Shown here one piece after another: positions 10,054-32,362 of a DNA stretch of 44,834 nucleotides. Under the pieces are notes generated by a model that worked only from the letters and a program-made list of their open reading frames with translations, ran no database searches and was not told where the DNA came from. The DNA comes from a virus (Duplodnaviria > Caudoviricetes). Numbering within the stretch: the first letter of the stretch is position 1; each line of letters opens with the position of its first letter. Location of the stretch: the IMG/VR virus record IMGVR_UViG_3300005077_001095, positions 1-44,834 of that record. The stretch is one strand, 5' to 3'. The translations under genes and the position numbers were made by a program.

Positions 10054-11058
10054 ATGAGAAAATTAGCATCTATACAAGTAATTCAACAGCTAGAACCAAT
10101 TCCTGGAGCGGATGCAATAGAGACGGCTTCTGTACTTGGTTGGAAGGTTGTAGTAAAAAAAGGTGAGTTTAAGCAGGGTCAGTTTTGCGTTTATTGCGAA
10201 ATCGATTCTGTGTTTCCGCGCAGACCGGAATTTGATTTTTTAGCAGAACGCCATTATAGAATTAAAACGATCAAGCTAAGAGGACAAATATCACAGGGAA
10301 TTGTTTTCCCCTTAGATATATTGCCAGAGACTTACATAGCCAAAGAAGATGACGACGTAACGGAGCTTTTAGAAATAGTAAAGTATGAGCTCCCAGAAAG
10401 ATTTGCTATAGGCGGCTCAAGAGGATCTTTTCCAGGCTTCCTTAGGAAAACAGATGAAACCAGAATACAATCAATCCCTAGTGTTCTGGATATATTCAAT
10501 GGGAAGGCCTACTATATTACCCAAAAACTTGATGGAACATCAGCCACATACTACTATCATCCAGAACACGGATATGGGGCTTGTTCTCGTAACCATTTAA
10601 AGGATGATGGAGATAATGTATACTGGAATGTAGGTGTTAAAGAAGATATCGAAGTCAAGCTAAAGGACGCGTTTGAAAAATATGGTAGACCCTTTGCAAT
10701 ACAAGGGGAAATTTGTGGTCCGAACATACAAGGTAATAAGTTAGGTTTACCACATCATAAATTATTCTTATTCAACCTATACGACATTGATTTTGGAAAA
10801 TACGTTAATGGTCCTATAAATGATTGGTGTACAGTTCTTGGATTTACTCCAGTACCTCTCCTTGAAGAAGGAGATAACTTTGACTATACTCTTGCTGAGC
10901 TGCTAGAAAAAGCACGTGGCAAGTATCCTTCTGGTAAAAACCAAGAAGGTATAGTAGTTCGACTCAACAACGAGGAACTACAGTGTCGTGGAACCGCCGA
11001 AGGACGTCCTTCCTTCAAAGTCATAAATAATGATTTCCTGCTAAAAGACGAAACCTAA
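10054..11058 (+). CDS. ATP-dependent RNA ligase (DRB0094-like)
   Basis: N-terminal RKLASI/OB-type module; motifs KLDGTS, IQGEICG, EGIVVR, FKVIN. Confidence 0.88.
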   Translation: MRKLASIQVIQQLEPIPGADAIETASVLGWKVVVKKGEFKQGQFCVYCEIDSVFPRRPEFDFLAERHYRIKTIKLRGQISQGIVFPLDILPETYIAKEDDDVTELLEIVKYELPERFAIGGSRGSFPGFLRKTDETRIQSIPSVLDIFNGKAYYITQKLDGTSATYYYHPEHGYGACSRNHLKDDGDNVYWNVGVKEDIEVKLKDAFEKYGRPFAIQGEICGPNIQGNKLGLPHHKLFLFNLYDIDFGKYVNGPINDWCTVLGFTPVPLLEEGDNFDYTLAELLEKARGKYPSGKNQEGIVVRLNNEELQCRGTAEGRPSFKVINNDFLLKDET

Positions 11059-11073
11059 ACAAAGGAAAGTACA

Positions 11074-11409
11074 ATGCACGCTCTGTTTGTTCTCTTCGTA
11101 TTTCTAACTATCATCGTAACCATTTTTCAGTGGGCAGGTCTCTTCTACCTGGTCAAGGAAGACGAGTTAGAATCCCAGCGTATGATGATCAGTTTACTCA
11201 TTCCATGGGGGTTTTTAGTAATCTTAAATGATTACGTTCTATCCAAGGAAATGGAAAAGAAAGATTTCAAAGACATTAAAGTCTGCGAAGAATTCTGCGC
11301 ATCATACGTCAAGGGGTACAAAGCCTTGGATGAGGCAGAACGTCTAATCATCGCCGATCGCTGCAAGACCTGGCATGATATCTTCTCAAGGAGCAAGGTA
11401 ATTTCATGA
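11074..11409 (+). CDS. membrane protein
   Basis: Two hydrophobic segments; AAGGA RBS. Confidence 0.6.
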   Translation: MHALFVLFVFLTIIVTIFQWAGLFYLVKEDELESQRMMISLLIPWGFLVILNDYVLSKEMEKKDFKDIKVCEEFCASYVKGYKALDEAERLIIADRCKTWHDIFSRSKVIS

Positions 11410-11648
11410 AAACGGCTCTGGGAATTCTTCTAATTGTGGCAGGGCTTGTCTTTGGTCTCTGGGCAGGCATTTGGTGGGCATTTATTGGTGGAATAATCCA
11501 GGTGATTGTTGCCGCCAAAGCTACACCAATCGTAGCTTCTGCTATCGCCTGGGGAATCCTCAAGGTAATCTGTTCTGGGCTTATCGGATGGATTGCATTG
11601 GCGGTACTAGCGATCCCCGGAGCCGCATTCATCGCAAGCGATCAATAA
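11406..11648 (+). CDS. small membrane protein
   Basis: Almost entirely hydrophobic, 80 aa; ATGA overlap. Confidence 0.65.
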   Translation: MKTALGILLIVAGLVFGLWAGIWWAFIGGIIQVIVAAKATPIVASAIAWGILKVICSGLIGWIALAVLAIPGAAFIASDQ

Positions 11649-11675
11649 CAGGTGGGGCTCATCTGAGCCCCTTAT

Positions 11676-11747
11676 GCGTCGGTAGCTCAATGGTAGAGCT
11701 CCAGTTTTCCAAACTGGACGTTGCGGGTTCGAGCCCCGTCCGGCGCT
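11676..11747 (+). tRNA. tRNA-Gly(TCC)
   Basis: Acceptor GCGTCGG/CCGGCGC, anticodon arm CCAGT-TTTCCAA-ACTGG, T loop TTCGAGC. Confidence 0.95.
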
Positions 11748-11767
11748 TACAAACAAAGGAACCCACG

Positions 11768-12160
11768 ATGGAACAGTCTTTAGAGATTAACCTTCATAAG
11801 TTGATTATGGAAGACTCTTCGGAAATCATTAGAGTCTTACTAACCATAGCCAAAACCCACCCTGAAGTGTTGGAAAGTGCAATAAGACATAACTCTTCAA
11901 GAAGAGCCTTGTTATTTACTACTTTGGAGCGGGCAATTGCATTAGCAGACAGTGGAAAAGTGATCTCAGCAATTAAATTAATAAGAAGCCCTCTTGAGGT
12001 AGAAGGTCCATTACCTGATGAAACCCGGGTAATAGTAATGGGCCTTAAAGAAAGCAAAGACACAATGGACGCCATAAGAACCTATGTGAAGGCTTTCGAT
12101 CAAGCCTTCAATCATATGGAAAAGGAGGAAGATCTTGAACATCCAGCAGCCAACAGCTGA
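11768..12160 (+). CDS. protein with ribosomal L7/L12 C-terminal-like motif
   Basis: KVISAIKLIR...GLKESKD resembles KIxAIKxxR...GLKEAK; start moved to the ATG after the tRNA with AAGGA RBS. Confidence 0.55.
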   Translation: MEQSLEINLHKLIMEDSSEIIRVLLTIAKTHPEVLESAIRHNSSRRALLFTTLERAIALADSGKVISAIKLIRSPLEVEGPLPDETRVIVMGLKESKDTMDAIRTYVKAFDQAFNHMEKEEDLEHPAANS

Positions 12161-13046
12161 TTATGGTGTAATAGTGGGTAGGTTTCAAGTAAGCCAACTC
12201 ACGGCGGCCCATCATGACCTGATAGCTGGAGTCCTGCAAAGACACAGGCAGGTACTGGTCATTGTAGGGTGTACCCCCGGAAACCTTACTAACAAGGCTA
12301 ATCCATTATCCTACGCGGCTAGGACTATAATGCTACGGGATAGCTTCCCACTTATTCTCACTGAGGGACTTCAGGATATGCCCTCGGATGAAGATTGGTC
12401 CAGGGAAATGGACAAGATTATCCGAAGAGTTTTCCCGATGGGATCAGTGCTTCTATATGGAGGAAGAGATTCCTTCATACCGCACTATCACGGAAATTTC
12501 CCCACGGCTGAGGTATCTACGGTGGTATCTCTTTCGGGAACCGAGCAAAGAAATCAAATAAGGACACAAGTTCCTACCACAACTGAGGGAAGGGCAGGGG
12601 TCATCTTTGCTATTGAGAATCAGTACTCTTCCTTCAAGCCCTGTGTGGATATCCTCTGCTACAATCCTGCAACAAAGGAAATTCTGCTTGCAAAGCGTAA
12701 TTCAGAACCTGGTTGGAGAATGCCTGGTGGTCATGCAGACATCGAAAAGGATAATTCCTACGATGACGCTGCCAAAAGGGAATTCTATGAAGAGATGGGC
12801 CACACCATAGAAGCCGACAACTTTCAAATGTTATTCAGCTTCAAGGTGGACGATCCCCGTTATCGTACATCAAGTGACAAGATCATGACTCTGGTGTTCT
12901 CAGCGCAGTATGTCCATGGTTTTCCTAGAGCTTCTGACGACATCGATGAAGCCAAGTGGTTTCCCATAGGACAACTTCCAAATCTTATGCCGGAGCACAA
13001 AAACGCGATCGCTCAGGCCTGCCATAAAATCCTCACCCAAAAATAG
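12135..13046 (+). CDS. nadM: bifunctional NMN adenylyltransferase / Nudix hydrolase
   Basis: GRFQ..H nucleotidyltransferase motif, SGTEQR, Nudix box GG..D..AAKREFYEEMG; AAGGAGG RBS with TTG start. Confidence 0.85.
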   Translation: MNIQQPTADYGVIVGRFQVSQLTAAHHDLIAGVLQRHRQVLVIVGCTPGNLTNKANPLSYAARTIMLRDSFPLILTEGLQDMPSDEDWSREMDKIIRRVFPMGSVLLYGGRDSFIPHYHGNFPTAEVSTVVSLSGTEQRNQIRTQVPTTTEGRAGVIFAIENQYSSFKPCVDILCYNPATKEILLAKRNSEPGWRMPGGHADIEKDNSYDDAAKREFYEEMGHTIEADNFQMLFSFKVDDPRYRTSSDKIMTLVFSAQYVHGFPRASDDIDEAKWFPIGQLPNLMPEHKNAIAQACHKILTQK

Positions 13047-13054
13047 GACCCAAC

Positions 13055-14440
13055 ATGCGCAACAACTTCATTCTCAAAACGGACAGCTACAAGCCAAGTC
13101 ACTGGCCTGTGCTGGATCCCGAAGTCACCCACTCTTACTCATACTTTGAGAGTCGTGGTGGCCGATACGCAGGAACAATCTCCTTTGGGCATCAGGCCAC
13201 ATTGATGGAACATTTCCTCGGACAGCAGGTCACTCAGGAGAAGATCGATTACGCCCATGAATTCCTACGTCAGCACTTCGGATTCGACCTCATGAATCGA
13301 GCTGGCTGGGAACACATCCTTTCCAAGCACGAAGGTAGGTTACCTTTGGAAATCAAGGCTGTTGCCGAAGGTACTTACGTACCAGCGCACAACGTTTTGA
13401 TGACGGTGGAAAACACCGATCCCAAGGTGCCTTGGCTAACCAACTATGCTGAGACACTTCTGGTACAGGATTGGTATCCACTCACCATTGCCAGCAACTC
13501 CAATTCCTGTCGTAACATCATGCTGGACTTCCTGGAAAAAACAGGTGATCCTTCACGAATCGATTTCATGCTGCATGACTTCGGTTTCCGGGGTGTTACC
13601 TGCTGGGAACAAGCTGCAATTGGTGGTATGGCACATCTGCTGATGTTCAATGGCACTGACACACTTGCGGCAATCGAAGCTGCCAAGCACTACTACGATG
13701 CGCCAATGTGTGGTTTTTCCATTCCTGCCACTGAGCACTTCGTCATGACCATGCGCGGCCGGGACCAAGAAGCAGCCGTAGTTGACGCACTACTCGATGC
13801 CTATCCTGAAGGTCTCGTGGCTTGCGTAGGTGACCAATACAACATCTTTGAGTTCTGCCGCATGTTGAGTAACGCGCACTTCAAGCCGCGCATTCTTGGA
13901 CGCAACGGTACATTCGTAGTGCGGCCAGATTCTGGTTCGCCTCCCGAAGTGGTCTGCAAAGTTCTGGAGATCCTATGGCATGGGTTTGGCGGCACGTTCA
14001 ACAGCAAGGGATACAAGGTGCTCGATCCCCATATCCGTGTCATTCAAGGAGATGGCATCGATCACCAAATGATCCATATAGTGCTCGCCGCCATGATGGC
14101 CCACGGATTCAGTGCAGACAACATCGCGTTTGGTTCCGGTGGTGGCCTTCTCCAAAAATTCGATCGCGACACCAACCGTTTCGCCTTCAAGTGCTCCTCA
14201 GTGCAAGGAAGCTTCGGACAACGGGACGTATACAAGGATCCGATCACGGACATGGTCAAGACCTCCAAGCGAGGACGACTCTCCCTGATCAAGAACGGAC
14301 AGGGACAATTTCAGACGGTTCCACAACACACGGTGGATCCCGCCGAAGATTTCCTTCAAACCGTGTTTCTCAATGGTGAACTCGTCAATCGGCAAAACTG
14401 GGCTGATATCGTAGGACGTGCTCGCCGTTACAAGGTTTAA
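13055..14440 (+). CDS. nadV: nicotinamide phosphoribosyltransferase (NAMPT)
   Basis: TDSYK, HDFGFRG, SIPATEH, VRPDSG, IQGDG and FGSGGGLLQ motifs. Confidence 0.93.
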   Translation: MRNNFILKTDSYKPSHWPVLDPEVTHSYSYFESRGGRYAGTISFGHQATLMEHFLGQQVTQEKIDYAHEFLRQHFGFDLMNRAGWEHILSKHEGRLPLEIKAVAEGTYVPAHNVLMTVENTDPKVPWLTNYAETLLVQDWYPLTIASNSNSCRNIMLDFLEKTGDPSRIDFMLHDFGFRGVTCWEQAAIGGMAHLLMFNGTDTLAAIEAAKHYYDAPMCGFSIPATEHFVMTMRGRDQEAAVVDALLDAYPEGLVACVGDQYNIFEFCRMLSNAHFKPRILGRNGTFVVRPDSGSPPEVVCKVLEILWHGFGGTFNSKGYKVLDPHIRVIQGDGIDHQMIHIVLAAMMAHGFSADNIAFGSGGGLLQKFDRDTNRFAFKCSSVQGSFGQRDVYKDPITDMVKTSKRGRLSLIKNGQGQFQTVPQHTVDPAEDFLQTVFLNGELVNRQNWADIVGRARRYKV

Positions 14441-18755: not shown

Positions 18756-21700
18756 TTAATAAAATCTTTTTTGTGTAAAATCAACATTCTTGTTAAATTC
18801 GGTGCCATAAAGATACGAAGGCATAGGATCTACCCCATGAAGGTTACTGGCAGCACCTAGAGCAGCACCATCTTTTAGCGTTTCTCTAATCCTATTGACA
18901 GTAAGCTTGCTGAGCCAATCTGGATTATCCATAGCAAGAGTATCAATACTCTTAAAATATGGAGTATATTTAATCTCTTCTTCTCCATCTAACTTGCGTT
19001 GTTTATTGATAGCTACCAACTTACTTAGAGGTGCTATATCCCCACGAATATATTCACTATCTTCTGGAGCTTCGTCAATTTCTGCATTATTTGCAATTCC
19101 ACGAATTACAGTTTCAAAGGTCTTCTTTCCAAGACCTTCCTTTTTAAATACACCTTCTAAGTCATCCACCATTTGAAGACGAGCAGCCTGATATCCTTTA
19201 TACTCCATTAATTCTTGTGGTTTTACTGAGCCAGCACTGATAGAGTCACCTTCTTCTAGCATATCACCTTTTTTTACTACCAGAACTCTGCCATATGGTA
19301 CATGGTGCTTTACACCAGCCACATATACATCAACACCACCAATAGGACTTTTCTCTATTCTGTGTACCACACCTTTTACAGAAGCAAGTGTAGCTTTTCC
19401 AGCAACGATTTCTGGCACCTTCACAATCTGCTCCATCTTAGGAAATCCTGAAAGTACATCCTGTTCCGCTGTAGCAGATCCACCACTGTGGAAAGCCTTC
19501 ATTGTCAACTGGGTTGACCTCTCAGTCATGGCCTGTCCCTCTTTGATACCAACATTAGTACCTATTGCTACTAAATTACCATCTTCGGCTAGTCCATAAC
19601 ATTTTTGACAAATGCCATTAATAGACTCACATGTTAAGGGAGATCTAACTAATAAACTAAGCATCCCTTTACTACGAGCTTTATTTATAATGGTGTTGTC
19701 GATTTCATCATTACGTTTACCAACACCAGGAATATCTCTTGGTAAAAATCTATCTTGAAGATTTCTCTGGTCGCTCAACTCAATTTCTACTCCGTCGTCA
19801 GTACCACAATCGGCCTCAACTATAAGTAGATTTTTTGTTACACCAAGAAGTGACTTATTGATAGCACCAGACTGCTCAGTATTAATAGCTCTATCAACCA
19901 TACCTTTACGAGCTCCATACAAACTCATCCAATAACTACCAAGATCTAGGCCTTCTGCCAGAGATTTAGTAATGGGGGTAGGAATAGCTTTTCCGTGAAC
20001 ATCAATTTTAATACCAGGAGCTGTTAGAATCTGTCTAACTGAGTCATGTTTACTCTCAGCACCTGACTCCAACATATCAAAAAGTCCGCGAGATTTCCCA
20101 GTTTCCTTAACATATTTATTCTGTGCCTCTTCAATCAAAGCTTGAGCCTTTAACCAGTGCTTTACCTTTTGCTCTCGGCTCCACTTAGGATCTTCTACAT
20201 CTTTGAAATGCTTAACGATCTTGTCTCTCCAAGATCTATCAATATCAAAATCGTTAATAGACACAGTACTACCAAACTCATGTCCAAACTGTATAGCCAT
20301 ATCTTTTAAAGCATCTATTACTGGTCCAAAATCATTTGGGTATTCCTTTGCTATTCTGTCCAGTATTTTCTTTAATACCTTTTTATCTACTGTGGTGTTA
20401 AACTCTTCTAACTGCATTCCCTTAGGCAGGGTTTTTAGAACCATCTGCCTACCAAGGCTGGTTCTAACACCTGCCAACATAAATGTATGATTTAGCTCTA
20501 ATTTATTTGCTCTATGTGCAGCATTGGCCTCAGCTAAAGATTTAAAAGACATATTGGTAGCTTGAAGTTCTCTTGTGAGATGCCACAATCCAAGCTGATA
20601 ATCTTTGCTAAATGCCCCGGCTGGGATATTAGACTTACTACCTGCCTGCCAAATATTTCTACTGGGAAGCATAGTAAATGCTTCCTCAACAGCCTTTGGT
20701 CCTACAGGTACATGTACCGACATTGTGTCACCATCAAAGTCAGCATTATAGCCTTTAACAATAAGAGGATTAAGCTTGATAGAACTACCAGTAACAGGTC
20801 TAGCCATATGGGCTTGAATAGAATGTTTGTGCAACGAAGGGGCTCTGTTCATAAGAACAGGTCTATTCTTCATTACTTCTGCAAATGCTATTTTTGCGAC
20901 ATGTGTATTCTGTCTCACTTCTTCTCTAGCCTGTAAGGGCGTAAAACCTTGGTTTACTAGCTCTCTCACAGCGAATGGTAAGAAAACCTTCTTATAGAGT
21001 GTCTCTGGTAAACCAATTTCATCTAAGCCCAAAGCGGGGTCAAGGGTGATAGTACTACGAGCACTAAGGTCCTGACGCTTACCCCATAGTTTATTGTGTG
21101 CATAACCATACTTGGGACTTTGCTTTCCAGCAATGGTAACTAATATACCTTCCTTCTTTTCTTTCTTTCCAGGAGTTGGGTCGTCATCAGTACCTATAGT
21201 ATAGGACATTTCCTTGTATAGATTAAATCTAGCATCACCTCCAAAGCCGGCCTCTAAACCTAGGGTTTTATAATCCTTTAAACCATTATTTACTACCGCG
21301 AGATCACGGTAGTTATAATTAATAGGAGAAGAATTAATGTCTCCACTAGCTAAAGAAAAAGCAGGTCTGTAAGCTGGAGGAATGACAGGAAAATACCTAA
21401 TCATATAAAGCTCATCTGGCCTTTTATTAAATTTATCCAAAGCCTCCAAGTAGCGATATCTTCTATTTAATTTATCTACTTCTGCTCTTGGAGCTTTAGC
21501 TAGTGCAGCCCTAGTAAGCCGCATCTCCTCTTTTACATTAATACTAGCTAAAGCATGCTCAATACCCCTTACACCTGTTTCCCCCGTTTTTGGAATAACA
21601 GCCTTTTCTTTAATAATATTCTCATACAGAGGCTTTGATAACCCCAGCACAGTTAAGATAGGCTTTTCGTACAGTGGGTGTGGCATCTTATCCGCTAGCG

Positions 21701-24700
21701 TAATATGAGACCACTTTTTGCCTTTCATGCCACCAGTAACATCTTTGTCAAAAAGTCCTCCGGCTATTGGGGAAAGATTCTTGCCAATTAGCATTTTTCC
21801 TGCATCGGTAAGCTCCCCATTACTCATTTCCAAAGTTTGATCATCGGTCGTAGGTTCTAAAGACATCATTGTGCCATTTTTGTTTACGTTGACACCAAGT
21901 CCCTTTAGTAACACCAAGAGCTTTTCAAATGCAAAGTTTGCCTGAGGTGGTGGTATTGGTCTGCCTGCTTGTATAGCTGCCCAAATTTCGTCGTTTCTTT
22001 GTGACTTAAGTGCAGCAAACTCACTAAGATTTTCTCTGGCCCCGTGGGCTAACAAACCAAAGGTAGTCAGTGGATCAATCTTTTGTCCGGGCTCAGCACC
22101 ATGTGAAGGCTGCTCCTCTACCGAGTAGGTACCATAAGACCTAGCCTTGGCTTTGTGCTCCACAGTGTGCATTAGTTTCATGATATACTGATTACCAGTA
22201 AATATTGGATTTTTAAATGGTTTTCCATCCTTCCCATCCAATAATACTTCATCAGCCTTAATTCCTAGAGACTTGAGCTCTGATTGTATCTCCTTTAGAT
22301 AATTTTTTCCGCTGAAGTTTTCTACATAAAATTTTTGTCCTTTAGCAGTAGCTATCTTGCCAGCAGCTGTCTCCAAAATTTGTCCTGTATTCATACGTCC
22401 CGGAACGCCATTTGGAGAAAGAATCAGATCAATCCTCTTACCGTCAGTAGTATGTGGCGCTTCCTCATCAGGAATAATTCTAGAGACAATGGACTTATTC
22501 CCATGTCTACCGGCTATCTTGTCTCCAACTACCATTGGATTACTTGTTTTAAGGTGTACTACTATTTTACCTCCAGATAGACGATTAACATAAATAACTT
22601 TGGCCTTCTCTCCACCATGCCAAGTTAAACTACGATTGGCATAAGGCATATACATGCTTTTGTTCATGCTTCGTAGAATTTTCTCTTCATCTGTAAAATC
22701 TTTTGGCTCTAAATACGCTACTATTACATCTTCTGGGTCAATCTCTGCTCCAACCTTAATGATTCCATCAGGATCATAGTTACCAGCTTTGCTATCTGGT
22801 ATGAGGGCTGGGTAATATAGCCTAAATTTTTTGAGGTTTTGGATACCTTCCTTATTTACAATAATAGACTCTGGTATAATTTTTGTAGAGGTGAAATCCT
22901 TGGATAAGCTCTCTGTGATAACACAAGAGTCTTCATAATTAAGCCCCTTCCAAGACATGTAGGCTACATTTACATTTAAACCCACAGATAAACTACCGTC
23001 CTTAGGATCTTGGAAGTTATTAAAAGCTAATAGTTGATTAGCCTTAACTTTTTCACCCACTTTAACTCTTGGGGTTGACTGCAAAAAAGTTTCTCTATTT
23101 AACGGAAATTGGTTAAATAGTCCTATCTTTACAGACTCTTTACTATTGTCTGGTTTTAAATAAATATAATCATCTGTTACTTTGGTAACCGTAGCACTTT
23201 TGATTTCTTCTGGTACCATAGGTGCCAGATATCTACCAATGGCCTGCTCAAAGGATATATTCTCTTTTGAACCATAAATTTTAGACTCTATAAGTGGTGA
23301 TTCTGTTTTATCTAATGGAATAGCCTGCGCACCCATTTTTGCACCGAAAGATGCTCTAACGGCATCGTCACTTTGCATAAAAGGAATTAGATTTGTTGGC
23401 CAGGAAAAAATAGACCAAGTATTTTGTATCCAACCATCTATCTTTTTAGAAGGGACTTCTTGTACCTGTCCTTCTGACATCGCCTTGACAATAGAGGCTT
23501 TAGCTTTTGGTTTTCCATTAACCCACTCCCATTGATCAGGAAAGCCCAAGGTAAGTTTGGAGACTTCAAGTGGAGTTAAAAATCTAGATTCCCCAGTAGG
23601 GGTAATAATGGACTTTTTAATATCATCACCATGCTTTTTAATATCTACGGCCAATGGAAGGGTAACACCCACCTTGCCAGATTCAGGAGTAGCAATGGGA
23701 TCAAGGAACCCTAATTGGCTGGGATGTACGTCTCGAACGCCCATAGTAATAGCATGAGAACTTTGAACACCACCAGTACCCATTACTGTGGTTTTTCTCC
23801 ACTCACTTAGAATACTAATAGGATTAGTTTGTTCTGGTGTGGAACTAAGATCACCAGTAGTATAAAACTTTTTTAATGGTTTGGTATAAGTATCAGAAGA
23901 AATAATGTCCTTAATACTGGATTTGTTATCTGTTCTAGTTGCTAAGTTAACCAATATTTTTGGTTTTTGCTTATCCATATAAGCTGCTAATAGATCCGTA
24001 GGTGTATAAAGATTTTTAAACACCAGACTATCTCTCTCGTCAGGAGACTGCTCTCCGCGTAACACACCAAGAATCTTCTTGCTTGTAGCAAAAAGAGTAT
24101 CTTCATTGACTTTTTCAAAGCCCTCACCAAGGGTGAGCTTTGTTGTAGCTGCGCTTACCTTTGTATTATCAAGATAAGTCTTTAGTGTGGTAATGGCAGA
24201 TTGATAATCTAAAGGACGTTTTCTTGTTATTTTCTCAACCAAGTCGGGTATTTCTATTACTTCTCTGTTAATACCACTAGCTTTATTAGCATTGAATACT
24301 TCTAAGCCCCAAGCCTTTTTCATTTCTTCATCTGGAAATCCCAAGGCATTAAGAATGGTATAAAGTTTAAACTTGCGGTTGGCCAGCAATAAATAAAATA
24401 ACCTAGACTCAGGGTCAAAAATCATCTTAAAGTTATAACCTTTCTCAAGGTCAAACCAAGACTCTAACTCACCGTTTTCCTTTACTCTAGTATAGATACC
24501 AGGCTTAAGTCTCAATTGATTAATTGTTTGGTACTCTGATCCATCGATAATCATGCTATATCTATTTGTTAGTCTTGGTAAACTAAGTATTTTTATTCGC
24601 TTTGATTCATCGATTACCTTTCCAGTTTTGTTATCTCTAAGTCTAAGATGTCCATAGATAGGTAGTACCCATGAACCACCCTTAAGTTTCATATCTTTTT

Positions 24701-24890
24701 GTGCGGGAATATCGTAAGGATCTACCTTATTTTCATCTGCACTAACTTCTACTAACTCTAGGGTATTTGTTTTTCCCTGAATGGGGAACTGCTCAACAAG
24801 ATATTTGGTAATGTAATCAACTAATTCATTATTTTGAACTTCTGGTTCTAAAATATCTTTTAGTATTTCGGCTGGTTTTGTTTGACTCAT
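18756..24890 (-). CDS. rpoBC: fused beta-beta' DNA-directed RNA polymerase
   Basis: Beta motifs RDVHP..TPE, LIPF..DD..RA, GDKIAGRHGNK, PGRMNTGQILE; beta' motifs PVIPP..RP, GKRQDLSARS, NRAPSLH, catalytic NADFDGD, GARKG, TQLTMKAFHSGG; one continuous ORF. Confidence 0.93.
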   Translation of the reverse strand: MSQTKPAEILKDILEPEVQNNELVDYITKYLVEQFPIQGKTNTLELVEVSADENKVDPYDIPAQKDMKLKGGSWVLPIYGHLRLRDNKTGKVIDESKRIKILSLPRLTNRYSMIIDGSEYQTINQLRLKPGIYTRVKENGELESWFDLEKGYNFKMIFDPESRLFYLLLANRKFKLYTILNALGFPDEEMKKAWGLEVFNANKASGINREVIEIPDLVEKITRKRPLDYQSAITTLKTYLDNTKVSAATTKLTLGEGFEKVNEDTLFATSKKILGVLRGEQSPDERDSLVFKNLYTPTDLLAAYMDKQKPKILVNLATRTDNKSSIKDIISSDTYTKPLKKFYTTGDLSSTPEQTNPISILSEWRKTTVMGTGGVQSSHAITMGVRDVHPSQLGFLDPIATPESGKVGVTLPLAVDIKKHGDDIKKSIITPTGESRFLTPLEVSKLTLGFPDQWEWVNGKPKAKASIVKAMSEGQVQEVPSKKIDGWIQNTWSIFSWPTNLIPFMQSDDAVRASFGAKMGAQAIPLDKTESPLIESKIYGSKENISFEQAIGRYLAPMVPEEIKSATVTKVTDDYIYLKPDNSKESVKIGLFNQFPLNRETFLQSTPRVKVGEKVKANQLLAFNNFQDPKDGSLSVGLNVNVAYMSWKGLNYEDSCVITESLSKDFTSTKIIPESIIVNKEGIQNLKKFRLYYPALIPDSKAGNYDPDGIIKVGAEIDPEDVIVAYLEPKDFTDEEKILRSMNKSMYMPYANRSLTWHGGEKAKVIYVNRLSGGKIVVHLKTSNPMVVGDKIAGRHGNKSIVSRIIPDEEAPHTTDGKRIDLILSPNGVPGRMNTGQILETAAGKIATAKGQKFYVENFSGKNYLKEIQSELKSLGIKADEVLLDGKDGKPFKNPIFTGNQYIMKLMHTVEHKAKARSYGTYSVEEQPSHGAEPGQKIDPLTTFGLLAHGARENLSEFAALKSQRNDEIWAAIQAGRPIPPPQANFAFEKLLVLLKGLGVNVNKNGTMMSLEPTTDDQTLEMSNGELTDAGKMLIGKNLSPIAGGLFDKDVTGGMKGKKWSHITLADKMPHPLYEKPILTVLGLSKPLYENIIKEKAVIPKTGETGVRGIEHALASINVKEEMRLTRAALAKAPRAEVDKLNRRYRYLEALDKFNKRPDELYMIRYFPVIPPAYRPAFSLASGDINSSPINYNYRDLAVVNNGLKDYKTLGLEAGFGGDARFNLYKEMSYTIGTDDDPTPGKKEKKEGILVTIAGKQSPKYGYAHNKLWGKRQDLSARSTITLDPALGLDEIGLPETLYKKVFLPFAVRELVNQGFTPLQAREEVRQNTHVAKIAFAEVMKNRPVLMNRAPSLHKHSIQAHMARPVTGSSIKLNPLIVKGYNADFDGDTMSVHVPVGPKAVEEAFTMLPSRNIWQAGSKSNIPAGAFSKDYQLGLWHLTRELQATNMSFKSLAEANAAHRANKLELNHTFMLAGVRTSLGRQMVLKTLPKGMQLEEFNTTVDKKVLKKILDRIAKEYPNDFGPVIDALKDMAIQFGHEFGSTVSINDFDIDRSWRDKIVKHFKDVEDPKWSREQKVKHWLKAQALIEEAQNKYVKETGKSRGLFDMLESGAESKHDSVRQILTAPGIKIDVHGKAIPTPITKSLAEGLDLGSYWMSLYGARKGMVDRAINTEQSGAINKSLLGVTKNLLIVEADCGTDDGVEIELSDQRNLQDRFLPRDIPGVGKRNDEIDNTIINKARSKGMLSLLVRSPLTCESINGICQKCYGLAEDGNLVAIGTNVGIKEGQAMTERSTQLTMKAFHSGGSATAEQDVLSGFPKMEQIVKVPEIVAGKATLASVKGVVHRIEKSPIGGVDVYVAGVKHHVPYGRVLVVKKGDMLEEGDSISAGSVKPQELMEYKGYQAARLQMVDDLEGVFKKEGLGKKTFETVIRGIANNAEIDEAPEDSEYIRGDIAPLSKLVAINKQRKLDGEEEIKYTPYFKSIDTLAMDNPDWLSKLTVNRIRETLKDGAALGAASNLHGVDPMPSYLYGTEFNKNVDFTQKRFY

Positions 24891-25185: not shown

Positions 25186-25739
25186 AGAAAAAGGTTTGCC
25201 CAATCTGTAAGTCCGTAGAGCTTACAGAACAAGAACACAAGCATCCTCTCGGAAGGTGCTATTGGTGTGTGAAAGAATATCATGAAAAGGCCGCTCGTAC
25301 ATTAGGCCAAGCAATGGCTCCACCAAATCCTTCGGATTTTGGTAGAACAGAAGCAGAGGTAGCGCTTGGAAGACCCAAGCCTGCCGACCCATCGGACCCA
25401 ACGGCGTCTTATAGACGTCCCACAGGAGGCATTGATCCAGTGGCAGAGTCGGTGCCATTCTCTGCTGAATCTCGCGAGATCTTAAAGCAGAATTTTTTAT
25501 ACGATCCCGAAAATCCACCAGTAGTTACCGAGGTGATTGCTCGTGGAAACTATGGCACACAATTGGAACTCAGGATGCCGGTAGGCATTGCCAAGGAATG
25601 GCAGGATGTCATTCAGGGCCAGCTGGAAGAAATGCTGAAACACGTAATACGACTACTTACCTTTGGCACTCTCCACGACTCAATCAAGGAGGGTATGACA
25701 CAGGGTGGTCAGCCTTTTGGACAACACGGTAGAGAATAA
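25176..25739 (+). CDS. hypothetical protein with N-terminal zinc finger
   Basis: CPIC and CYWC motifs; GAGG RBS. Confidence 0.65.
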   Translation: MQMKKKVCPICKSVELTEQEHKHPLGRCYWCVKEYHEKAARTLGQAMAPPNPSDFGRTEAEVALGRPKPADPSDPTASYRRPTGGIDPVAESVPFSAESREILKQNFLYDPENPPVVTEVIARGNYGTQLELRMPVGIAKEWQDVIQGQLEEMLKHVIRLLTFGTLHDSIKEGMTQGGQPFGQHGRE

Positions 25740-26904
25740 AGGATACCAAGTGAATACGCTACCTGAAAAATTCCAGGCCATTGAAGAGGAACTCAGGGCC
25801 AGTTTTGCCGAAAGAGATGATGTAATTAGGGGTGGAATTCTTGCCCTACTATCTGGAAAGCATATCCTGCTTTTGGGCCCTCCAGGAACCGGTAAGTCCC
25901 TGTTGGCCAGAAAGCTTTGTGCTGCTGTCAGTGGCGCAAAATTCTTTGAGAAACTCCTAACAAGAGTGACTGGTGCAGAAGAATTATTCGGGCCAATCTC
26001 CATGGCCAATCTAAAACAAGATCGATTCATGCGAAAGACAGATGGGTATCTACCCGATGCTCATATTGCTTTCTTGGATGAGGTCTATAAGGGCAGTAGT
26101 GCCATCCTAAACTCTCTGCTGACCCTAGCAAACGAAGGCTTGTTCCATAACGATGGGATTCCTGTCAAAACTCCTTTGATGACAATCATTGGTGCCTCCA
26201 ACGAGGTTCCCGAAGAGGGTGATGGTTTGGAAGCCTTTGACGACCGGTTGCAACTACGGTTTATGGTTCAAAAGATCGACGACAGAGATACCATGCTGCG
26301 TATGCTTAAGTCAGACTTCTCTGGCCCTCCAAAAAACCAAGTAACCTTGGCTGAATTGGAGCAAGCAAAGAAGCAGGTATCTGAAATCGAAATTCCCGAC
26401 GACGTTTATAAGATGTATTTGGACCTATGGAATATCTTCCGTAGCAAGGGATTCGATATCACAGACCGTGTGTTCAAACAAGCCATCGATGTAATCAAGG
26501 CCTCCGCCTGGCTACGGGGCGTTAAAGTAGCCACCGAGGATGATTTCGAAGAGCTTCGTCATATGTTCTGGAAATCTCCGGAAAAACGGCGCGACGTGCA
26601 CCTGGAAATTTTGAGTGCCACCAATCCCGAGAAAGCACGTGTAACCGACATCTACCATGAAATCGAGAACCTGGTCAAGGAAGCCAATACCACGGCAGCC
26701 AACAAAAAGCCAGGCCAACAAGATAATGCTATAGAAGTAATGGGTAAGATTAAGGACAAGAAGGCCGAAGTAGAAAGAATCATGGCCTCGATGCGGAAGC
26801 AGAAAAAGGACATGAAGGAAGTCACAAACATGTACAACAAGATCAAGATTCACCTCCAAGACGTAGCGTCAAATCTGGTTGGACTGAGCATTAAGGTGGA
26901 CTAA
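25705..26904 (+). CDS. ravA: MoxR/RavA-family AAA+ ATPase
   Basis: GPPGTGKS, FLDEVYK..SAILNSLL, GASNE, DRLQLR; start may be GTG 25750. Confidence 0.85.
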   Translation: MVSLLDNTVENKGYQVNTLPEKFQAIEEELRASFAERDDVIRGGILALLSGKHILLLGPPGTGKSLLARKLCAAVSGAKFFEKLLTRVTGAEELFGPISMANLKQDRFMRKTDGYLPDAHIAFLDEVYKGSSAILNSLLTLANEGLFHNDGIPVKTPLMTIIGASNEVPEEGDGLEAFDDRLQLRFMVQKIDDRDTMLRMLKSDFSGPPKNQVTLAELEQAKKQVSEIEIPDDVYKMYLDLWNIFRSKGFDITDRVFKQAIDVIKASAWLRGVKVATEDDFEELRHMFWKSPEKRRDVHLEILSATNPEKARVTDIYHEIENLVKEANTTAANKKPGQQDNAIEVMGKIKDKKAEVERIMASMRKQKKDMKEVTNMYNKIKIHLQDVASNLVGLSIKVD

Positions 26905-28487
26905 TGCGTAAACTAACAGCAGAAGACATCTTAAAACATTTCGGCACAAACAAGTATACAGTAAAGTGTGACAAGTTCGACATAGAGGACTTTACTGACA
27001 TCAAGGAGGCTAGTGGGAACCTGCTTAAGGTAGAGGAAGAAGGTTTGAAAGAGCTGAACACTTACTCTGAACTAATGCAGGACTTATATAGCACGATGTT
27101 CAAGATTCACCCACACTTGAACGAGGATTATGAGGTGAGAAAGGAAATGCTCTTCAACTATGAGTTGATGAGAGTAATCCTAGACCACCGAAGAACAAAA
27201 GAAATCCGAGCCATCTCACAGATGGACAAACTAACCAGCGCCATCGGTGTGGAGTCTATAACACCCGAGGTAACTGAACTCATCAAACAGATGAAAGAGC
27301 AAAAAGAGGCCTTTGAGGCTATGCTCAACGCGGCACAGGAGGCTGAGGAAGCCGCTCAGGCCGCGGAAGAAGATGAGGAAGGGGAAGGAGCAGGCGTAGG
27401 CGCTGGGGAAGAAGAGGACGAAGAGGAAAAGGATCAAAAGGGTAAAAGGGGGCGTAATAACCAAAAGCCTACTCTTACCTTAGAAGAGGCAAAGGCAAGA
27501 CTGGAAGAAGCTCGAGCCAACCTGAAAGAAGCATTTGACGACCCGGCATTTAAAAACCAGGTTGGACAGATGATAGGTCGGGTCAGGCACAAAGTTGTAG
27601 AAACAACTTCTTTGCTTCAAACTTGGGGTTTAACCTCTGATTCAACTTTTTCCAAAAGCTCCCATAGGGAGAAGATGGAATTGGTAAAGAAACTTTCCAG
27701 TAGTACCAAGCTGAAGAAGGTTTCAGAGTTAGCGGGAAGGCTTATCCCATTAGCCATGAATCAGCAAACCCAAAAGGTGAAGAAAGGTTGCGAGGAAATC
27801 TACAATGTAGAGCTTGGTTCTGATTTGTCTAGACTCCTTCCACAAGAAATCTCAAAGCTCAATGACCCAGACCGTGAACTGGAATTCATGGCCTCCTTCT
27901 TTGAAAACAAGTGCCTACAGTACTCCCTAAAGGGGAAGGAAAAGAAGGCACGAGGAGCCATCGTAGTATGCATTGATGAGTCCGGGTCCATGGAAGGAGA
28001 AGCCGAAATCTGGTCCAAAGCAGTGGCCATAGCACTTTTGCACATAGCTGTAAAGCAGAAGCGAAGCTACTTCGTGATCCACTTCGATGCTACCCATGAC
28101 CCAAAAAGACTACCAGTTCACGCCTTCCCGAAAGGCGAAACTCTTAACATGCTTAAGCTTGTTGAGATGGCAGAGCTTTTTATGGGCGGCGGTACTGACT
28201 TTGAGACTCCTCTAACAAGAGCCAAGATGTGCATTGATCTTGAAAAGGATTACCACAAAGCAGACATCATCTTCATTACAGATGGGGAATGTGCTGTAAG
28301 AGACTCTTGGCAAAAGGAGTTCATGGCCTGGAAAAAGGAAAAGGGGATTTCGATCTACTCAATCCTTATCAACACTGGAATCAATTCCGACACATCGCTG
28401 AAGGAATTCTCCACACAAATCTACAAACTTTCTGACTTCAAGGAAACGTCGGAAGACGTAGTACTTGACTTGTTCATGCAAGTGTAA
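26904..28487 (+). CDS. viaA: VWA-domain protein (ViaA-like)
   Basis: MIDAS motifs DESGSM, GGTDF, FITDGE; coupled (TAATG) to the AAA+ gene. Confidence 0.82.
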   Translation: MRKLTAEDILKHFGTNKYTVKCDKFDIEDFTDIKEASGNLLKVEEEGLKELNTYSELMQDLYSTMFKIHPHLNEDYEVRKEMLFNYELMRVILDHRRTKEIRAISQMDKLTSAIGVESITPEVTELIKQMKEQKEAFEAMLNAAQEAEEAAQAAEEDEEGEGAGVGAGEEEDEEEKDQKGKRGRNNQKPTLTLEEAKARLEEARANLKEAFDDPAFKNQVGQMIGRVRHKVVETTSLLQTWGLTSDSTFSKSSHREKMELVKKLSSSTKLKKVSELAGRLIPLAMNQQTQKVKKGCEEIYNVELGSDLSRLLPQEISKLNDPDRELEFMASFFENKCLQYSLKGKEKKARGAIVVCIDESGSMEGEAEIWSKAVAIALLHIAVKQKRSYFVIHFDATHDPKRLPVHAFPKGETLNMLKLVEMAELFMGGGTDFETPLTRAKMCIDLEKDYHKADIIFITDGECAVRDSWQKEFMAWKKEKGISIYSILINTGINSDTSLKEFSTQIYKLSDFKETSEDVVLDLFMQV

Positions 28488-28491
28488 CAAC

Positions 28492-28518
28492 AGGGGGAGG
28501 AAACTCCCCCTCATTTTT
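28492..28518 (+). terminator. intrinsic terminator
   Basis: AGGGGGAG-GAAA-CTCCCCCT followed by CATTTTT. Confidence 0.7.
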
Positions 28519-29091
28519 CCCCTAAAACACGATTACTTTGGTGATAGTTGCCAAGTATTTTTTGAGGTGTAGCTAGCCTCTAATGATACGTATTAAACGA
28601 TTCGTTTAGTAGGACGTCTAATTTTCTAGCAAAGAGATGCTTTATAGCATCTCCCACCATTTCGCCTTCGGCTCCATTGTTGATTTTTTCTTACGCAAAT
28701 CCCAAGGGATTCGCTCCAGGAAAAATCATCCGGGAGATGAAGGGCCCCCTGAGGACCTCGAGGTGCCCAGACACGTGTACAACACCCGGGATCCCGATCG
28801 ACCTCACGTCGACCAGGTAACTTAAGACCGAAAGAGGGCACTGGCCAAAAAGATCTTATCAAACAACTGCAGTCCACGGTGCACGCGTACGGCCGGCAGC
28901 CGGAGACCCGGCGCCGCGGAAGCTTCACGAAGCATGCAACCATGGACCATTCGAAACCAGGGAACGAAGCTCGGTCTAGAAACACAGACAAACAAAAGTA
29001 TATAAAAATATATATTTAAAAATTTATAAATAATCTTTGTATACTTATTAATATTAATAAAAAAAACAGTATTACCAAAAAAGGGGATAAA
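28514..29091 (+). ncRNA. putative retron msr-msd ncRNA
   Basis: End pairings 28537-28546 with 29070-29079 and 28514-28523 with 29082-29091; 5' hairpins; directly upstream of a retron-type RT. Confidence 0.65.
28741..29060. repeat. dense array of distinct palindromic restriction-type sites
   Basis: 24 different perfect hexamer palindromes in 28742-28980 and 8 more AT-rich ones in 28999-29060, read directly from the sequence. Confidence 0.9.
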
Positions 29092-29092
29092 C

Positions 29093-30082
29093 ATGCCTTG
29101 GGTTTTTGGCAGGAAAGCAGCTATCCAAGCTGACACAACCGTGAACAAGCTTCAGAGCAAAACTCCGGTTACTACTCCGGTAGGTTTATTGGAGTTTGTA
29201 GGTACCTCTACGCAAGAGGTAAATGAGATTATTGAAAACAAAGCTAATTATTACATAAGTTACTCACTTGCCAAACATGGCAAAACAAACAAGAGAAGAT
29301 TCATTAACGCCCCGCAGGGGCGTTTGAAGGAAATACAAACATCAATCTTACATAAGGTTCTTTACCGATTCAGGGTTAGCCAAATAGCCCACGGATTTGT
29401 AAAGCATCGTAGTCCAAAGACTAATGCTCTTCCGCACTTAGGTGCGCAGACATTGGTTAAAATGGACCTGACAGACTTTTTTGGGAGTTTAAAAACCCCT
29501 TTAGTAGTATCCTTGTTAACTACTTTGATTTCCAAAATCCCCGAAATAAAGGAAGATCCAACCGGATCCAGCATAGAGCTGCTGGCCGAGTTATTAACCT
29601 TTAGAGGTCAAATACCTCAGGGTGCCCCATCAAGTCCCGCTGTTACCAACTTGATTATGAATGGGGTGGATAGACGGCTTAAGGATTACGCCGATCACCT
29701 CAAACTAAGTGTTACCAGATATGCCGATGACATTACCTTTTCCTCAAAAGAAAAACTCGACCCAAAAGCTATAAGGGAAGTTACGAAGTTTGTAACTGCC
29801 CTTTGCAAGAATTCCGTAGGGGTAAAGGTAAACAAAAAGAAGACGAAAGTCAAAAGACAATCCAGTAGAATGTCGGTAACAGGTGTGGTAGTGAATGAGA
29901 AGGCCAACATTCCAAACCATACCTATCGAGAGCTAAGAGCAAGAGTTCACAATTATGTGAACGGAACCGCAACACTGGATGAAAAAGAACTACAAAGTTT
30001 GAGGGGACAATTAGAATGGCTGAGGAGCGTAAACCCGGACAAAGGCCAAAAGTTGATAGAAAAACTTGGAAGCAAGAAATAA
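29093..30082 (+). CDS. retron-type reverse transcriptase
   Basis: AHGF..NALPH (NAxxH region X), DLTDFF, PQGAPSSP, YADD, VTG (region Y); 329 aa with no maturase or endonuclease domain. Confidence 0.9.
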   Translation: MPWVFGRKAAIQADTTVNKLQSKTPVTTPVGLLEFVGTSTQEVNEIIENKANYYISYSLAKHGKTNKRRFINAPQGRLKEIQTSILHKVLYRFRVSQIAHGFVKHRSPKTNALPHLGAQTLVKMDLTDFFGSLKTPLVVSLLTTLISKIPEIKEDPTGSSIELLAELLTFRGQIPQGAPSSPAVTNLIMNGVDRRLKDYADHLKLSVTRYADDITFSSKEKLDPKAIREVTKFVTALCKNSVGVKVNKKKTKVKRQSSRMSVTGVVVNEKANIPNHTYRELRARVHNYVNGTATLDEKELQSLRGQLEWLRSVNPDKGQKLIEKLGSKK

Positions 30083-30558
30083 AGTCCGTACTGGACACCG
30101 CACAACAAAATCCTAACATCACCTGTATCGAAACATGCTTACCAATAGGGATAATAGCTACGCTTGGACCACAGTCAACGATCCAAGCGGCTTCGAGTAC
30201 AGGTGTAATACAAAAGTTGGAAATAGGATGGATCGACCAACTCGACCCAACTAAACAGATTGTGATTAGAAGGCTAGAGTACGTGTACCAAAACCATCCA
30301 CTTAGAGGTAGGAAGAGCTATTTCAAGATAGAGCTTACCCCTTGGGATGGCAGTAGGTACACATCCTCAACTCCCGGGGTGACACACCAGACAAAGAATC
30401 ATGCCGGAAATGTAGTGCTACGAAAAGTGGTGGCTTCCGAAAAAGCGTTAGAACCGATGATGAAACATTTTCTTCAGTATAGCCTAACGTTCTTAACGCA
30501 ACACTGCGTTATTCCACGAACCATCACAAAAACGGATGAACAGACAAAAGTATATTGA
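30016..30558 (+). CDS. hypothetical protein, candidate retron partner
   Basis: GAGGGG RBS; overlaps the RT 3' end by 67 nt. Confidence 0.6.
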   Translation: MAEERKPGQRPKVDRKTWKQEIKSVLDTAQQNPNITCIETCLPIGIIATLGPQSTIQAASSTGVIQKLEIGWIDQLDPTKQIVIRRLEYVYQNHPLRGRKSYFKIELTPWDGSRYTSSTPGVTHQTKNHAGNVVLRKVVASEKALEPMMKHFLQYSLTFLTQHCVIPRTITKTDEQTKVY

Positions 30559-30706
30559 TGTGCTTAAGATAATCGTAACGGTCGCCGCCATTGTAATCGA
30601 AGTTTTGCAAAAAACACATCACGGCGCTCGTTGGAGATAGTGAGTTGCGATAATCTTTCAGAGATGAAGCGTTTTAACGCAGAGCTCCAAAAGAAAGACT
30701 TGCAAC

Positions 30707-30901
30707 ATGAAATATTTCAAGGGAGTGCTAATAGTAGGAAGCACCAAGAAAAAGCAGCGAGAAAGAGTTATCTATACTCGCGGGCATAACATCCTTTCTG
30801 CACTGGATATTTCACATAAAATTCGAACAGCACGCTGGGAGTCAATCACTGAGATTAACCACGACGAGTATATTCGTGGAGTCCAGGATAACTCCTATTA
30901 A
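30707..30901 (+). CDS. hypothetical protein
   Basis: 64-aa ORF before a terminator. Confidence 0.5.
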   Translation: MKYFKGVLIVGSTKKKQRERVIYTRGHNILSALDISHKIRTARWESITEINHDEYIRGVQDNSY

Positions 30902-30904
30902 ACT

Positions 30905-30927
30905 AAAGCAGGCTTGCCTGCTTTTTT
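30905..30927 (+). terminator. intrinsic terminator
   Basis: AAAGCAGGC-TT-GCCTGCTTT followed by T run. Confidence 0.7.
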
Positions 30928-30937
30928 ACATTAATAC

Positions 30938-30966
30938 TTGCTTTTTAGATAAACTTGTATTATATT
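30938..30966 (+). promoter_or_regulatory. sigma70-type promoter
   Basis: TTGCTT-17 nt-TATATT upstream of the glycosyltransferase. Confidence 0.45.
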
Positions 30967-30994
30967 TAGATAAACAAATAACCATTAACTTACT

Positions 30995-32362
30995 ATGAGA
31001 AAACCTAGACTTTTTATTTGGGGGGATACCCCAAATGTAACTACAGGTTTTGGAAACGTGGCCAAAAACCTGTTCCGAGACCTTCATCTTCATTTTGATG
31101 TGTACATACTTGGTATTAATGAATATGGATTAAAAAAGTATGACACCACCAACTGGTTTATTTACTCGGTAGACCAGAGAGATCCATATGGATATGGAAA
31201 ATTAGGCATGGTTCTGGATGACTGTAAACCAGACTTAATTTTGCTTTTCCAGGATATTTTCAATGTACAAATTTTTATGCAGAATATGCAAAGGGAGGGA
31301 AAACTAATCCAGTTACCTCCTACGGTGATTTACTTTCCAATTGATGGCGCCCCAGTAAATCCTACTTGGAGAGGATTATTTGAAGATCCCAGAGTAACAA
31401 AAATTATTACATACTCTGAGTGGGCAAAAGAACAACTAATAGAACGTTTTCCATTCATTAATAGAGATTCTGTAGATGTGCTTTATCACGGAATCGACGT
31501 AGATACTTTTAAACCAGCGCCAAAAGGCGAGGTAAAAGAATTTAGATTAAAGTCAGGGTGGGATTACAAACATCCAGTACACAATACTGTAGAAAAAAGA
31601 TTTATTCTTTCTATGGTTAACCGATACCAACCAAGAAAGATGGTGGCTTTGGGAATTAAGGCCGCTGCACTTGTAACAAAAGGTTATAAGGTTTGTAAAT
31701 GCGGAAATTTGTATTCTCTAACAAAAGCTAGATGCGACCTAAATATGTGCGGCCCAGAAGATATTGTAGAAATGAAGGCTCCAAATCCCGATGTTGGGCT
31801 TTATCTACATATGAATGTAGCCGAACCTATTATGGGTCCAGCTCCTAGCCACTTACTACCTGTATTGGTAATGAACTGCGGATACGAAGACTATGATGTA
31901 GGTAAGAACCTATTCCTATTGGGAAATAGAAATCATTTGGCACACCCAATGACCGAAGCAGAGATGGCCTTGATTTATTCTGCTGCAGACATAAATCTTA
32001 GCACTGCAATCGGTGAAGGATTTGGGCTTTCCTTAGCAGAATCAGCTGCATGCGGTACACAAAGCATAGCACCAAAGAATTCAGCTATTCCCGAAGTGTT
32101 AAGAGAAACAGGCTATATGGTGGAAAACGCTAGCCTTATAAACATGGCTATGGATAATAGCCATATACGTCCAGTTGTTAGTTTACCAGCCTTGGTAAAA
32201 ACTATTGAAAAGGCTTATAAAGATTGGCAAGTTAATGGAAGAAACAAAGTATTCTCGCAGGAATGCATTGACAATGTAAAAAATAACTTCCTGTGGGAGG
32301 ATAAGCGAGAGTACATTACAAATACTTTACTAAGCTTGGTACCAACAACACTAAATGAATAA
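30995..32362 (+). CDS. GT-B (GT4-like) glycosyltransferase
   Basis: GDTPNVTTGFG, HGIDVDTF, NRYQPRK, EGFGLSLAESAACG (ExFG...E motif); Cys-rich insertion. Confidence 0.85.
   Translation: MRKPRLFIWGDTPNVTTGFGNVAKNLFRDLHLHFDVYILGINEYGLKKYDTTNWFIYSVDQRDPYGYGKLGMVLDDCKPDLILLFQDIFNVQIFMQNMQREGKLIQLPPTVIYFPIDGAPVNPTWRGLFEDPRVTKIITYSEWAKEQLIERFPFINRDSVDVLYHGIDVDTFKPAPKGEVKEFRLKSGWDYKHPVHNTVEKRFILSMVNRYQPRKMVALGIKAAALVTKGYKVCKCGNLYSLTKARCDLNMCGPEDIVEMKAPNPDVGLYLHMNVAEPIMGPAPSHLLPVLVMNCGYEDYDVGKNLFLLGNRNHLAHPMTEAEMALIYSAADINLSTAIGEGFGLSLAESAACGTQSIAPKNSAIPEVLRETGYMVENASLINMAMDNSHIRPVVSLPALVKTIEKAYKDWQVNGRNKVFSQECIDNVKNNFLWEDKREYITNTLLSLVPTTLNE

Follow-up and report, generated by a model that had tools for sequence, protein, structure and literature searches.

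A catalogue of restriction–modification targets in the predicted template RNA of a phage retron-type reverse transcriptase: a possible DNA bait for host restriction enzymes

Introduction

Why should a large tailed phage carry, immediately upstream of a retron-type reverse transcriptase (RT) gene, some 240 nt of non-coding DNA crowded with 24 different 6-bp palindromes? No bacterial defence is commoner than restriction–modification (R-M), and the countermeasures of phages include avoidance of sites, modified bases, methylases, shells and mimic proteins. The reading preferred here, which is given a probability of about 45%, is that the RT copies this catalogue of sites, that the product would become duplex, and that the duplex would bait host restriction enzymes. 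The window referred to below is the whole stretch of DNA analysed, 44,834 nt, a linear virus record that is about 22% complete.

Results

A retron-type RT at a conserved phage locus

The locus encodes two overlapping proteins:

29093–30082, + strand: retron-type RT, 329 aa, with NAxxH, YADD and VTG motifs
30016–30558, + strand: ORF180, a 180-aa protein, overlapping the RT stop by about 65 nt

Alignment assigns to the window RT a region X (NAxxH), a YADD motif and a region Y (VTG), all of which are described as marks of retron RTs (PMC7736814). Its best PADLOC and PDB matches are retron RTs, the closest solved structure being that of the Ec86 RT (E 5e-36), and it scores 230.6 bits with the NCBIfam St85 retron model (NF038233), under the cut-off of 235. 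For two other identities the scores are also below cut-off, i.e. DRT2 (41.9 bits with the Drt2 model, cut-off 390) and a group II intron RT (53.4 bits, cut-off 300). A quick tree places 26 of 27 phage RTs on one branch apart from the sampled cellular RTs (SH-aLRT 91), with about 25 proteins making a close group around the window RT. No cultured phage has a close RT, the best being about 32% identical among the 30 of 45 records listed, and the portal of the nearest cultured phages is only about 30% identical.

Related phage contigs, several of them 205–215 kb, were found by an alignment query, a single-protein query of viral contigs having given no relative. They keep the gene order of the window: fused beta/beta-prime RNA polymerase, MoxR AAA, vWA, a non-coding stretch, RT, ORF180, glycosyltransferase and a portal-like gene. 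The RNA polymerase beta and beta-prime domains share one 2044-aa ORF (18756–24890), and the RavA/ViaA-like pair of MoxR AAA and vWA genes (25705–28487) is beside the RT in most relatives and missing there in some. No RT-less relative was found to serve as a control: of 38 close glycosyltransferase loci, 33 carry the RT and the remaining five end short upstream. Other regions of the window (10054–14440 and 1009–3264) encode an RNA ligase, a NUDIX protein, a nicotinamide phosphoribosyltransferase and a ClpB-like ATPase; the NAD-salvage genes may, we presume, counter NAD-depleting defences. Between ORF180 and the glycosyltransferase gene there are about 440 nt without a long ORF (30558–30995), and a search of this interval detected no retron unit.

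The palindrome array

28742–28980, unstranded: catalogue of 24 different 6-bp palindromes together with interrupted, degenerate and asymmetric R-M sites

The initial annotation had listed 24 distinct 6-bp palindromes in this interval, every one of which was found where it had been placed, with no word occurring twice: GGGCCC (28742), CTCGAG (28757), CACGTG (28772), TGTACA (28776), CCCGGG (28785), GGATCC (28789), CGATCG (28795), GTCGAC (28808), CTTAAG (28821), TGGCCA (28842), AGATCT (28851), CTGCAG (28867), GTGCAC (28879), ACGCGT (28883), CGTACG (28886), CGGCCG (28890), GCCGGC (28892), GGCGCC (28910), CCGCGG (28914), AAGCTT (28920), GCATGC (28932), CCATGG (28940), TTCGAA (28950) and TCTAGA (28975). 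The interrupted or degenerate sites that it had also reported (CCTGAGG, AGGACCT, ACCAGGT, CCACGG, GCAGC, GGACC and CCAGG) are present, as is the overlap among sites, which by their coordinates involves seven adjacent pairs.

The 24 hexamer palindromes in 28741–28980 compare with 3.2 ± 1.7 expected, and a maximum of 11, in 5,000 dinucleotide shuffles; the next-best 240-nt stretch of the 44.8-kb window has 13. The probability that 24 words would all be distinct is between 0.0004 (composition-weighted) and 0.007 (uniform). Whereas 24 of the 30 4-bp palindromes in the array lengthen to 6 bp, only 7 of the 24 6-bp palindromes lengthen to 8 bp (chance being 1/4), so the unit is the 6-bp word and not a hairpin. 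When degenerate and asymmetric sites are counted, 75 of the 195 commercial specificities in the Biopython enzyme list are present in 28735–28985, compared with 31.5 in shuffles (maximum 45) and with a mean of 21.2 (maximum 44) in 177 other sequence windows. The array is almost certainly a catalogue of R-M targets under selection.

The predicted template RNA

The proposal that the array lies within a retron ncRNA beside the RT was upheld in that retron-type anatomy was found, with predicted limits of 28537–29079 and the array in the position of the msd:

28492–28511, + strand: terminator-like hairpin after the upstream vWA gene
28537–28546, + strand: a1 arm of the closing stem, ending in TA and pairing with 29070–29079
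28547, + strand: predicted branching G, unpaired in the MFE fold, G opposite G
28555–28589, + strand: msr stem-loop 1, predicted from the fold
28591–28611, + strand: msr stem-loop 2, the family hairpin, with core Y-G-[ATC]-T-[TA]-C-G
28616–28745, + strand: 5' part of the msd, with a stem formed with 28976–28989, a perfect 8-bp hairpin (28634–28653) and a long imperfect stem (28664–28745)
28996–29068, + strand: AT-rich 3' part of the msd with a hairpin, which would be copied first
29069–29079, + strand: G facing the branch point (29069) and a2 arm (29070–29079)

The a1/a2 stem has 10 bp including one G-U (P = 0.0135, 2,000 shuffles), and the region 28530–29085 folds at z −5.1. In many relatives, too, a1/a2 pairs are found, with sequences that differ from this one. 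Among 31 closing stems of relatives with at least nine Watson–Crick pairs, which were found without a flanking-base condition, 27 have a G facing a G; the window stem, which has a wobble and is not among these 31, shows the same G-G arrangement. The branching G of retrons is reported to be commonly preceded by TTA (PMC10849725); in the window ATA precedes G28547. The two predicted msr hairpins are within the range of one to three used to define retrons. A model made from 35 hairpins of relatives has 28584–28618 as its top match in the window (E 0.11), and the family hairpin shows 101 two-sided changes in 35 sequences, a count that is inflated as the sequences were chosen for pairing; the hairpin at 28591–28611 is likely the one recognized by the RT. 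On this predicted anatomy the priming step is retron-like, as are the RT and the msr. By contrast, the msd fold is multi-branched and imperfect, rather than the single long stable stem-loop by which the retron msd is described (PMC7736814). The closing stem, the family G-G and the hairpin together place the array in the msd position, and it is very probable that the catalogue is inside a retron msd.

An Rfam search gave nothing near the gathering score. A nested unit closed by the stem 28616–28629/28976–28989 was considered and set aside as the less likely reading, as C faces G there, unlike in the 27 of 31 family stems. The terminator-like hairpin at 28492–28511 suggests that the ncRNA has a promoter of its own; a promoter scan for the ncRNA was at chance level (5 vs 4.5) and found none. 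The AT-rich region 28996–29068 may also serve as the promoter of the RT.

Arrays in related phages

Palindrome enrichment around RT homologues, which the initial annotation had proposed examining, proved to be recurrent: 17 of 27 phage loci carry arrays of their own, compared with 0 of 80 cellular retron-RT loci, an array being called where the best 250-nt window exceeds the maximum of eight whole-locus shuffles by at least three. The other 10 phage loci have the RT and no clear catalogue, so the catalogue is dispensable. Of 22 large units, chosen partly by eye for palindromes, 19 have z of at least 3.5 against local shuffles, the exceptions being L002, L005 and L015; unit boundaries are approximate for L009 and L026, and for four others depend on stems of 6–7 bp. 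The catalogue is the top palindrome window in each of three complete relatives and, in every case where a stem could be assigned, falls in the interval from the family hairpin to a2. The closest relative, L002, has a unit at the same spot as that of the window. In three sets of close relatives (L084/L085, L014/L018 and L011/L015/L021) the msr and a1/a2 align and the catalogues do not, so counts from the units can be treated as roughly independent.

Several template units per RT are common in the relatives, e.g. six in L004 and five in L027. The 33 small units are not palindrome-rich (50 palindromes in 4,369 nt); the cDNA folds better than the sense strand in 26, worse in six and equally in one, a comparison uncontrolled for composition that carries no conclusion. 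Tandem groups of three to six small retron-type units per RT, with hairpin-like msd and without an excess of palindromes, occur in L004 (2738–3785), L027 (6342–7175), L010 (6714–8800), L013 (3334–3933) and L016 (3435–3926). In one complete relative, G003, family hairpins are found far from the RT gene, at about 110.7–111.4 kb and 178.2–178.7 kb (L292, L295), one of them with a 10-bp closing stem; to judge from these remote hairpins, the RT may serve templates in trans.

Some large units contain single-site tandem repeats, with four 29-nt copies bearing CCTAGG in L026 (7013–7135) and six CCCGGG in L017 (6803–6865). In L044 (4001–5221) the RT is split into two ORF fragments about 350 nt apart, the gap being possibly an intron.

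Word choice in the catalogues

Whether the words follow R-M targets can be asked independently of how the units were picked. Eight of the 64 hexamer palindromes have no dedicated enzyme in the Biopython list, a number also stated in PMC4687349, file 1 of which confirms TTGCAA. Words made of A and T alone, eight in number, were left out, as most of their occurrences are in AT-rich stems (24 vs 9.4 expected for those without an enzyme, 27 vs 9.8 for those with one). In the 22 units, the 52 GC-containing words with enzymes occur 444 times against 134.7 expected (3.3-fold), and the four without an enzyme occur six times against 10.3. Interrupted 7-mers behave similarly (21 units, L015 being dropped), with 61 observed vs 26.3 expected for those with enzymes and 122 vs 111.2 for those without. 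GGWCC, CCWGG and GCWGC are approximately doubled, with GCSGC and GGSCC near chance, and asymmetric commercial hexamers, counted with palindromes masked, number 91 vs 60.9 (P = 0.002 against GC-matched sets).

The target with the most enzymes in the REBASE table, CTGCAG (372), is in 17 of the 22 units. Of all the enzymes that REBASE counts for 56 words, 68% belong to the 24 words of the window, where chance would give 47% (P = 0.005). The number of units per word correlates with REBASE counts (rho 0.59, 56 words), as expected frequency does too; for observed/expected ratios among the 52 words the relationship is weak (rho 0.25, p 0.08). AAGCTT and GCGCGC are not enriched in the units tested, nor is GANTC (27 vs 36.8), and non-redundancy of the words is significant in only four of 22 units. 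On these counts, the array words track real R-M targets.

Discussion

Single-copy sites and the need for a second strand

A palindrome pairs perfectly only with another copy of the same word. The absence of a long hairpin from the array, as stated in the initial annotation, holds in the sense that no word has a second copy for perfect pairing, but imperfect hairpins are present at about 28871–28948 and 28793–28817. Fourteen of 16 catalogue cores have no folding excess over block-shuffled versions, the two that do being the window array (z −3.2 for the cDNA and −2.7 for the sense strand) and L014 (z −3.0). In the window, CCATGG, GCATGC and GTCGAC can form G-T wobble pairings with one-off partners on the cDNA strand. 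Two strand-specific wobble tests gave no sign that the msd folds as cDNA, and the numbers of DNA mini-hairpin loops (20 on the cDNA strand, 13 on the sense strand) are uninformative as a comparison. In either orientation, an asymmetric site is mostly found once in a unit; CTGAAG is present in 13 of the 22 units, in a single orientation in 12, and so has no fold-back partner. From the single-copy sites and the lack of general fold-back we infer a second DNA strand. The retrons described in the sources consulted make single-stranded DNA with sites in hairpins (bioRxiv 2020.06.22.160242, 2023.08.16.553469; PMC7736814), and for DRT2 a second strand is reported to appear on infection (review PMC13434031). 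A search for a polypurine-tract primer found no excess (p 0.49).

Proposed mechanism

It is probable that the catalogue RNA is reverse-transcribed. The RT would prime at G28547 and copy from 29068 back to about 28612, i.e. about 455 nt. A second strand would then be made, most simply by extending the 3' end of the RNA where it stays paired with that of the cDNA or, alternatively, from a 3'-terminal fold-back such as 28634–28653. Thousands of short duplexes would result and, during replication of the phage DNA, in which catalogue sites are retained by the hundred, would compete for any type II enzyme present in the host. That many relatives carry their own arrays is the ground for preferring a reading in which bait DNA would be mass-produced against host cutting. 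In terms of copy number, engineered retron DNA is reported to reach about 10,000–20,000 copies per cell and to decoy DNA-binding proteins (bioRxiv 2023.09.27.556556). The wider proposal, that in a family of phages of about 200 kb one RT serves several RNAs, one of which would give rise to many copies of a double-stranded DNA acting as a sponge for most of the common type II enzymes at once, is more tentative still than the reading for the window.

The five complete relatives have no DNA methyltransferase of the three Pfam families searched for and no QueC over the cut-off. GC-containing palindromes are in deficit by 5–9% in three complete relatives and not in the window (672 vs 670). With sites kept and no such methyltransferase, some other protection of the phage DNA is likely. 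Catalogue words and other words do not differ in avoidance in three genomes (p 0.23–0.87). In G003 (210 kb) CTCGAG is fully purged, with 0 vs about 9.1–9.2 expected, and is also missing from the G003 catalogue; GGGCCC is rare in the same genome (2 vs 8.8). G003 DNA has probably been exposed to enzymes cutting CTCGAG/GGGCCC. The duplex bait would have two weak points, in that a cleavable bait made after entry could not stop cutting at injection, and in that host methylases would consume the bait too.

Alternative explanations

The main rival to the bait, which is nonetheless considered unlikely, is that the RT-DNA would be a universal R-M substrate acting as a broad sensor, methylation or cutting of which would free a partner (ORF180 or a protein acting in trans) and so report the R-M state of the host or the methylase of a rival phage. 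One copy per site fits such a role, and there is precedent in Retron-Sen2 and Eco1, for each of which methylation at one msDNA site is the trigger, those cited by the initial annotation (Dam/Sen2 and Dcm/Eco1) being in print (bioRxiv 2020.06.22.160242, 2023.08.16.553469). Of 28 non-redundant loci, the window among them, 21 have ORF180, which overlaps the RT stop and would be a candidate partner. Its homologues have a mean column identity of about 21% and are missing near the RT in the other seven loci; it is thus kept in most relatives and not required for the catalogue. The two of five complete genomes that lack it (G001 and G005) both have catalogues, whereas the catalogue-less loci L003, L004 and L027 have it. 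It matches no effector family (no match in Pfam, PHROGs, PADLOC, NCBIfam, PDB sequences or the ESM Atlas), and the window lacks the GP88-like gene, the second of the frequent neighbours. The sensor proposal is weakened since no required effector was found. In about 20 relatives, e.g. L005 (5744–6466), L010 (5783–6520) and L007 (5725–6582), the gene after the RT module is GP88-like or radical-SAM-like, of one of two subfamilies, and in L008 (5851–7345) a GP88-like gene is in pieces beside an unrelated 305-aa ORF.

It is improbable that the bait would work without a second strand, i.e. as an RNA:DNA hybrid, by wobble fold-backs or between two RT-DNA molecules, with sites that are perhaps bound and poorly cut. 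The folding of the window array and of L014, and the wobble partners of three window sites, are as this would predict, but neither the majority of cores, which fold no better than shuffles, nor the asymmetric sites, which lack partners, are accommodated by it. Few enzymes cut hybrids, only six of the 223 considered in PMC3001074 robustly cutting both strands, mostly at least 100-fold more weakly than on DNA, and the hybrid-cutter site GANTC is unenriched.

We regard as doubtful a role for the catalogue in the phage chromosome or as RNA that is never reverse-transcribed, e.g. as a programmed cut point. Only for the chromosome is a duplex form proven, but the catalogue words recur 197 times elsewhere in the window, and occur 297–821 times in three complete relatives, so one cluster would add little; the placing of the catalogue between the family hairpin and a2 also argues against such a role.

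There is only a slight chance that the catalogue is a by-product or record with no present function, made of scars of restriction cutting and re-ligation or of captured fragments. Such an origin would suit the fast turnover of the catalogues and the mirroring of R-M targets in their words, but overlapping sites sharing 2–4 bases, and intact asymmetric sites that are cut outside the site, are not expected of ligation scars, and the sites are mostly single-copy.

A synthetic polylinker or assembly chimera, suggested by the resemblance to a multiple cloning site, is highly improbable and is largely refuted by the relatives, i.e. by independent arrays in the same module of 17 of 27 and by the unit of L002; the plasmid part of the vector and chimera check proposed in the initial annotation gave no match beyond chance in 72,556 PLSDB records, mostly natural plasmids (best E 3). 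With independent arrays in the same module of relatives, the array is judged to be natural.

Implications

If the duplex bait is real, DNA spanning many specificities would represent a new anti-restriction route, the reverse of the role for which retrons are known. Such a product would amount to a decoy, itself DNA, for R-M enzymes at large, from a retron that makes a second strand. Even without a decoy function, the catalogues would provide an evolved read-out of R-M specificities in uncultured hosts, and a multi-template RT may give long or double-stranded RT-DNA that is useful for editing.

Comparison with known systems

A literature search, with most subscription journals outside its coverage, turned up no account of a phage retron bearing such a catalogue of restriction sites. 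Phage DNA-mimic proteins such as T7 Ocr and ArdA compete with phage DNA for restriction enzymes, mostly of type I. These are proteins, whereas the product of the window would be real DNA for many type II specificities. A functional parallel to the proposal is pretroDNA (bioRxiv 10.1101/2023.09.27.556556), where high-copy retron DNA decoys sequence-specific DNA-binding proteins; unlike the window system, pretroDNA is synthetic, has its sites in perfect hairpins and targets transcription factors. The DRT2 defence RT, like the RT of the proposal, copies a neighbouring ncRNA and gives a precedent for a duplex product (PMC13434031); by contrast with the window RT, it is of another RT class, makes a repeated gene and acts in host defence.

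The RT of the window is like those of Retron-Eco1 (Ec86) and Retron-Sen2 (St85), type II-A, in having NAxxH, YADD and VTG, and its predicted ncRNA is like those of bacterial retrons in having an a1/a2 stem, TA before the branching G and msr hairpins. Methylase sites in RT-DNA matter in both Eco1 and Sen2, one site there standing against dozens of different sites in the window. By contrast with bacterial retrons, the system of the window sits at a fixed locus of a large tailed phage, belongs to a family that often has several template RNAs per RT, and has a predicted msd of about 455 nt without one long stem and no required effector. With the long msd stem absent and ORF180 only a candidate effector, the system is not filed under a known retron type, even though its predicted priming step is that of a retron.
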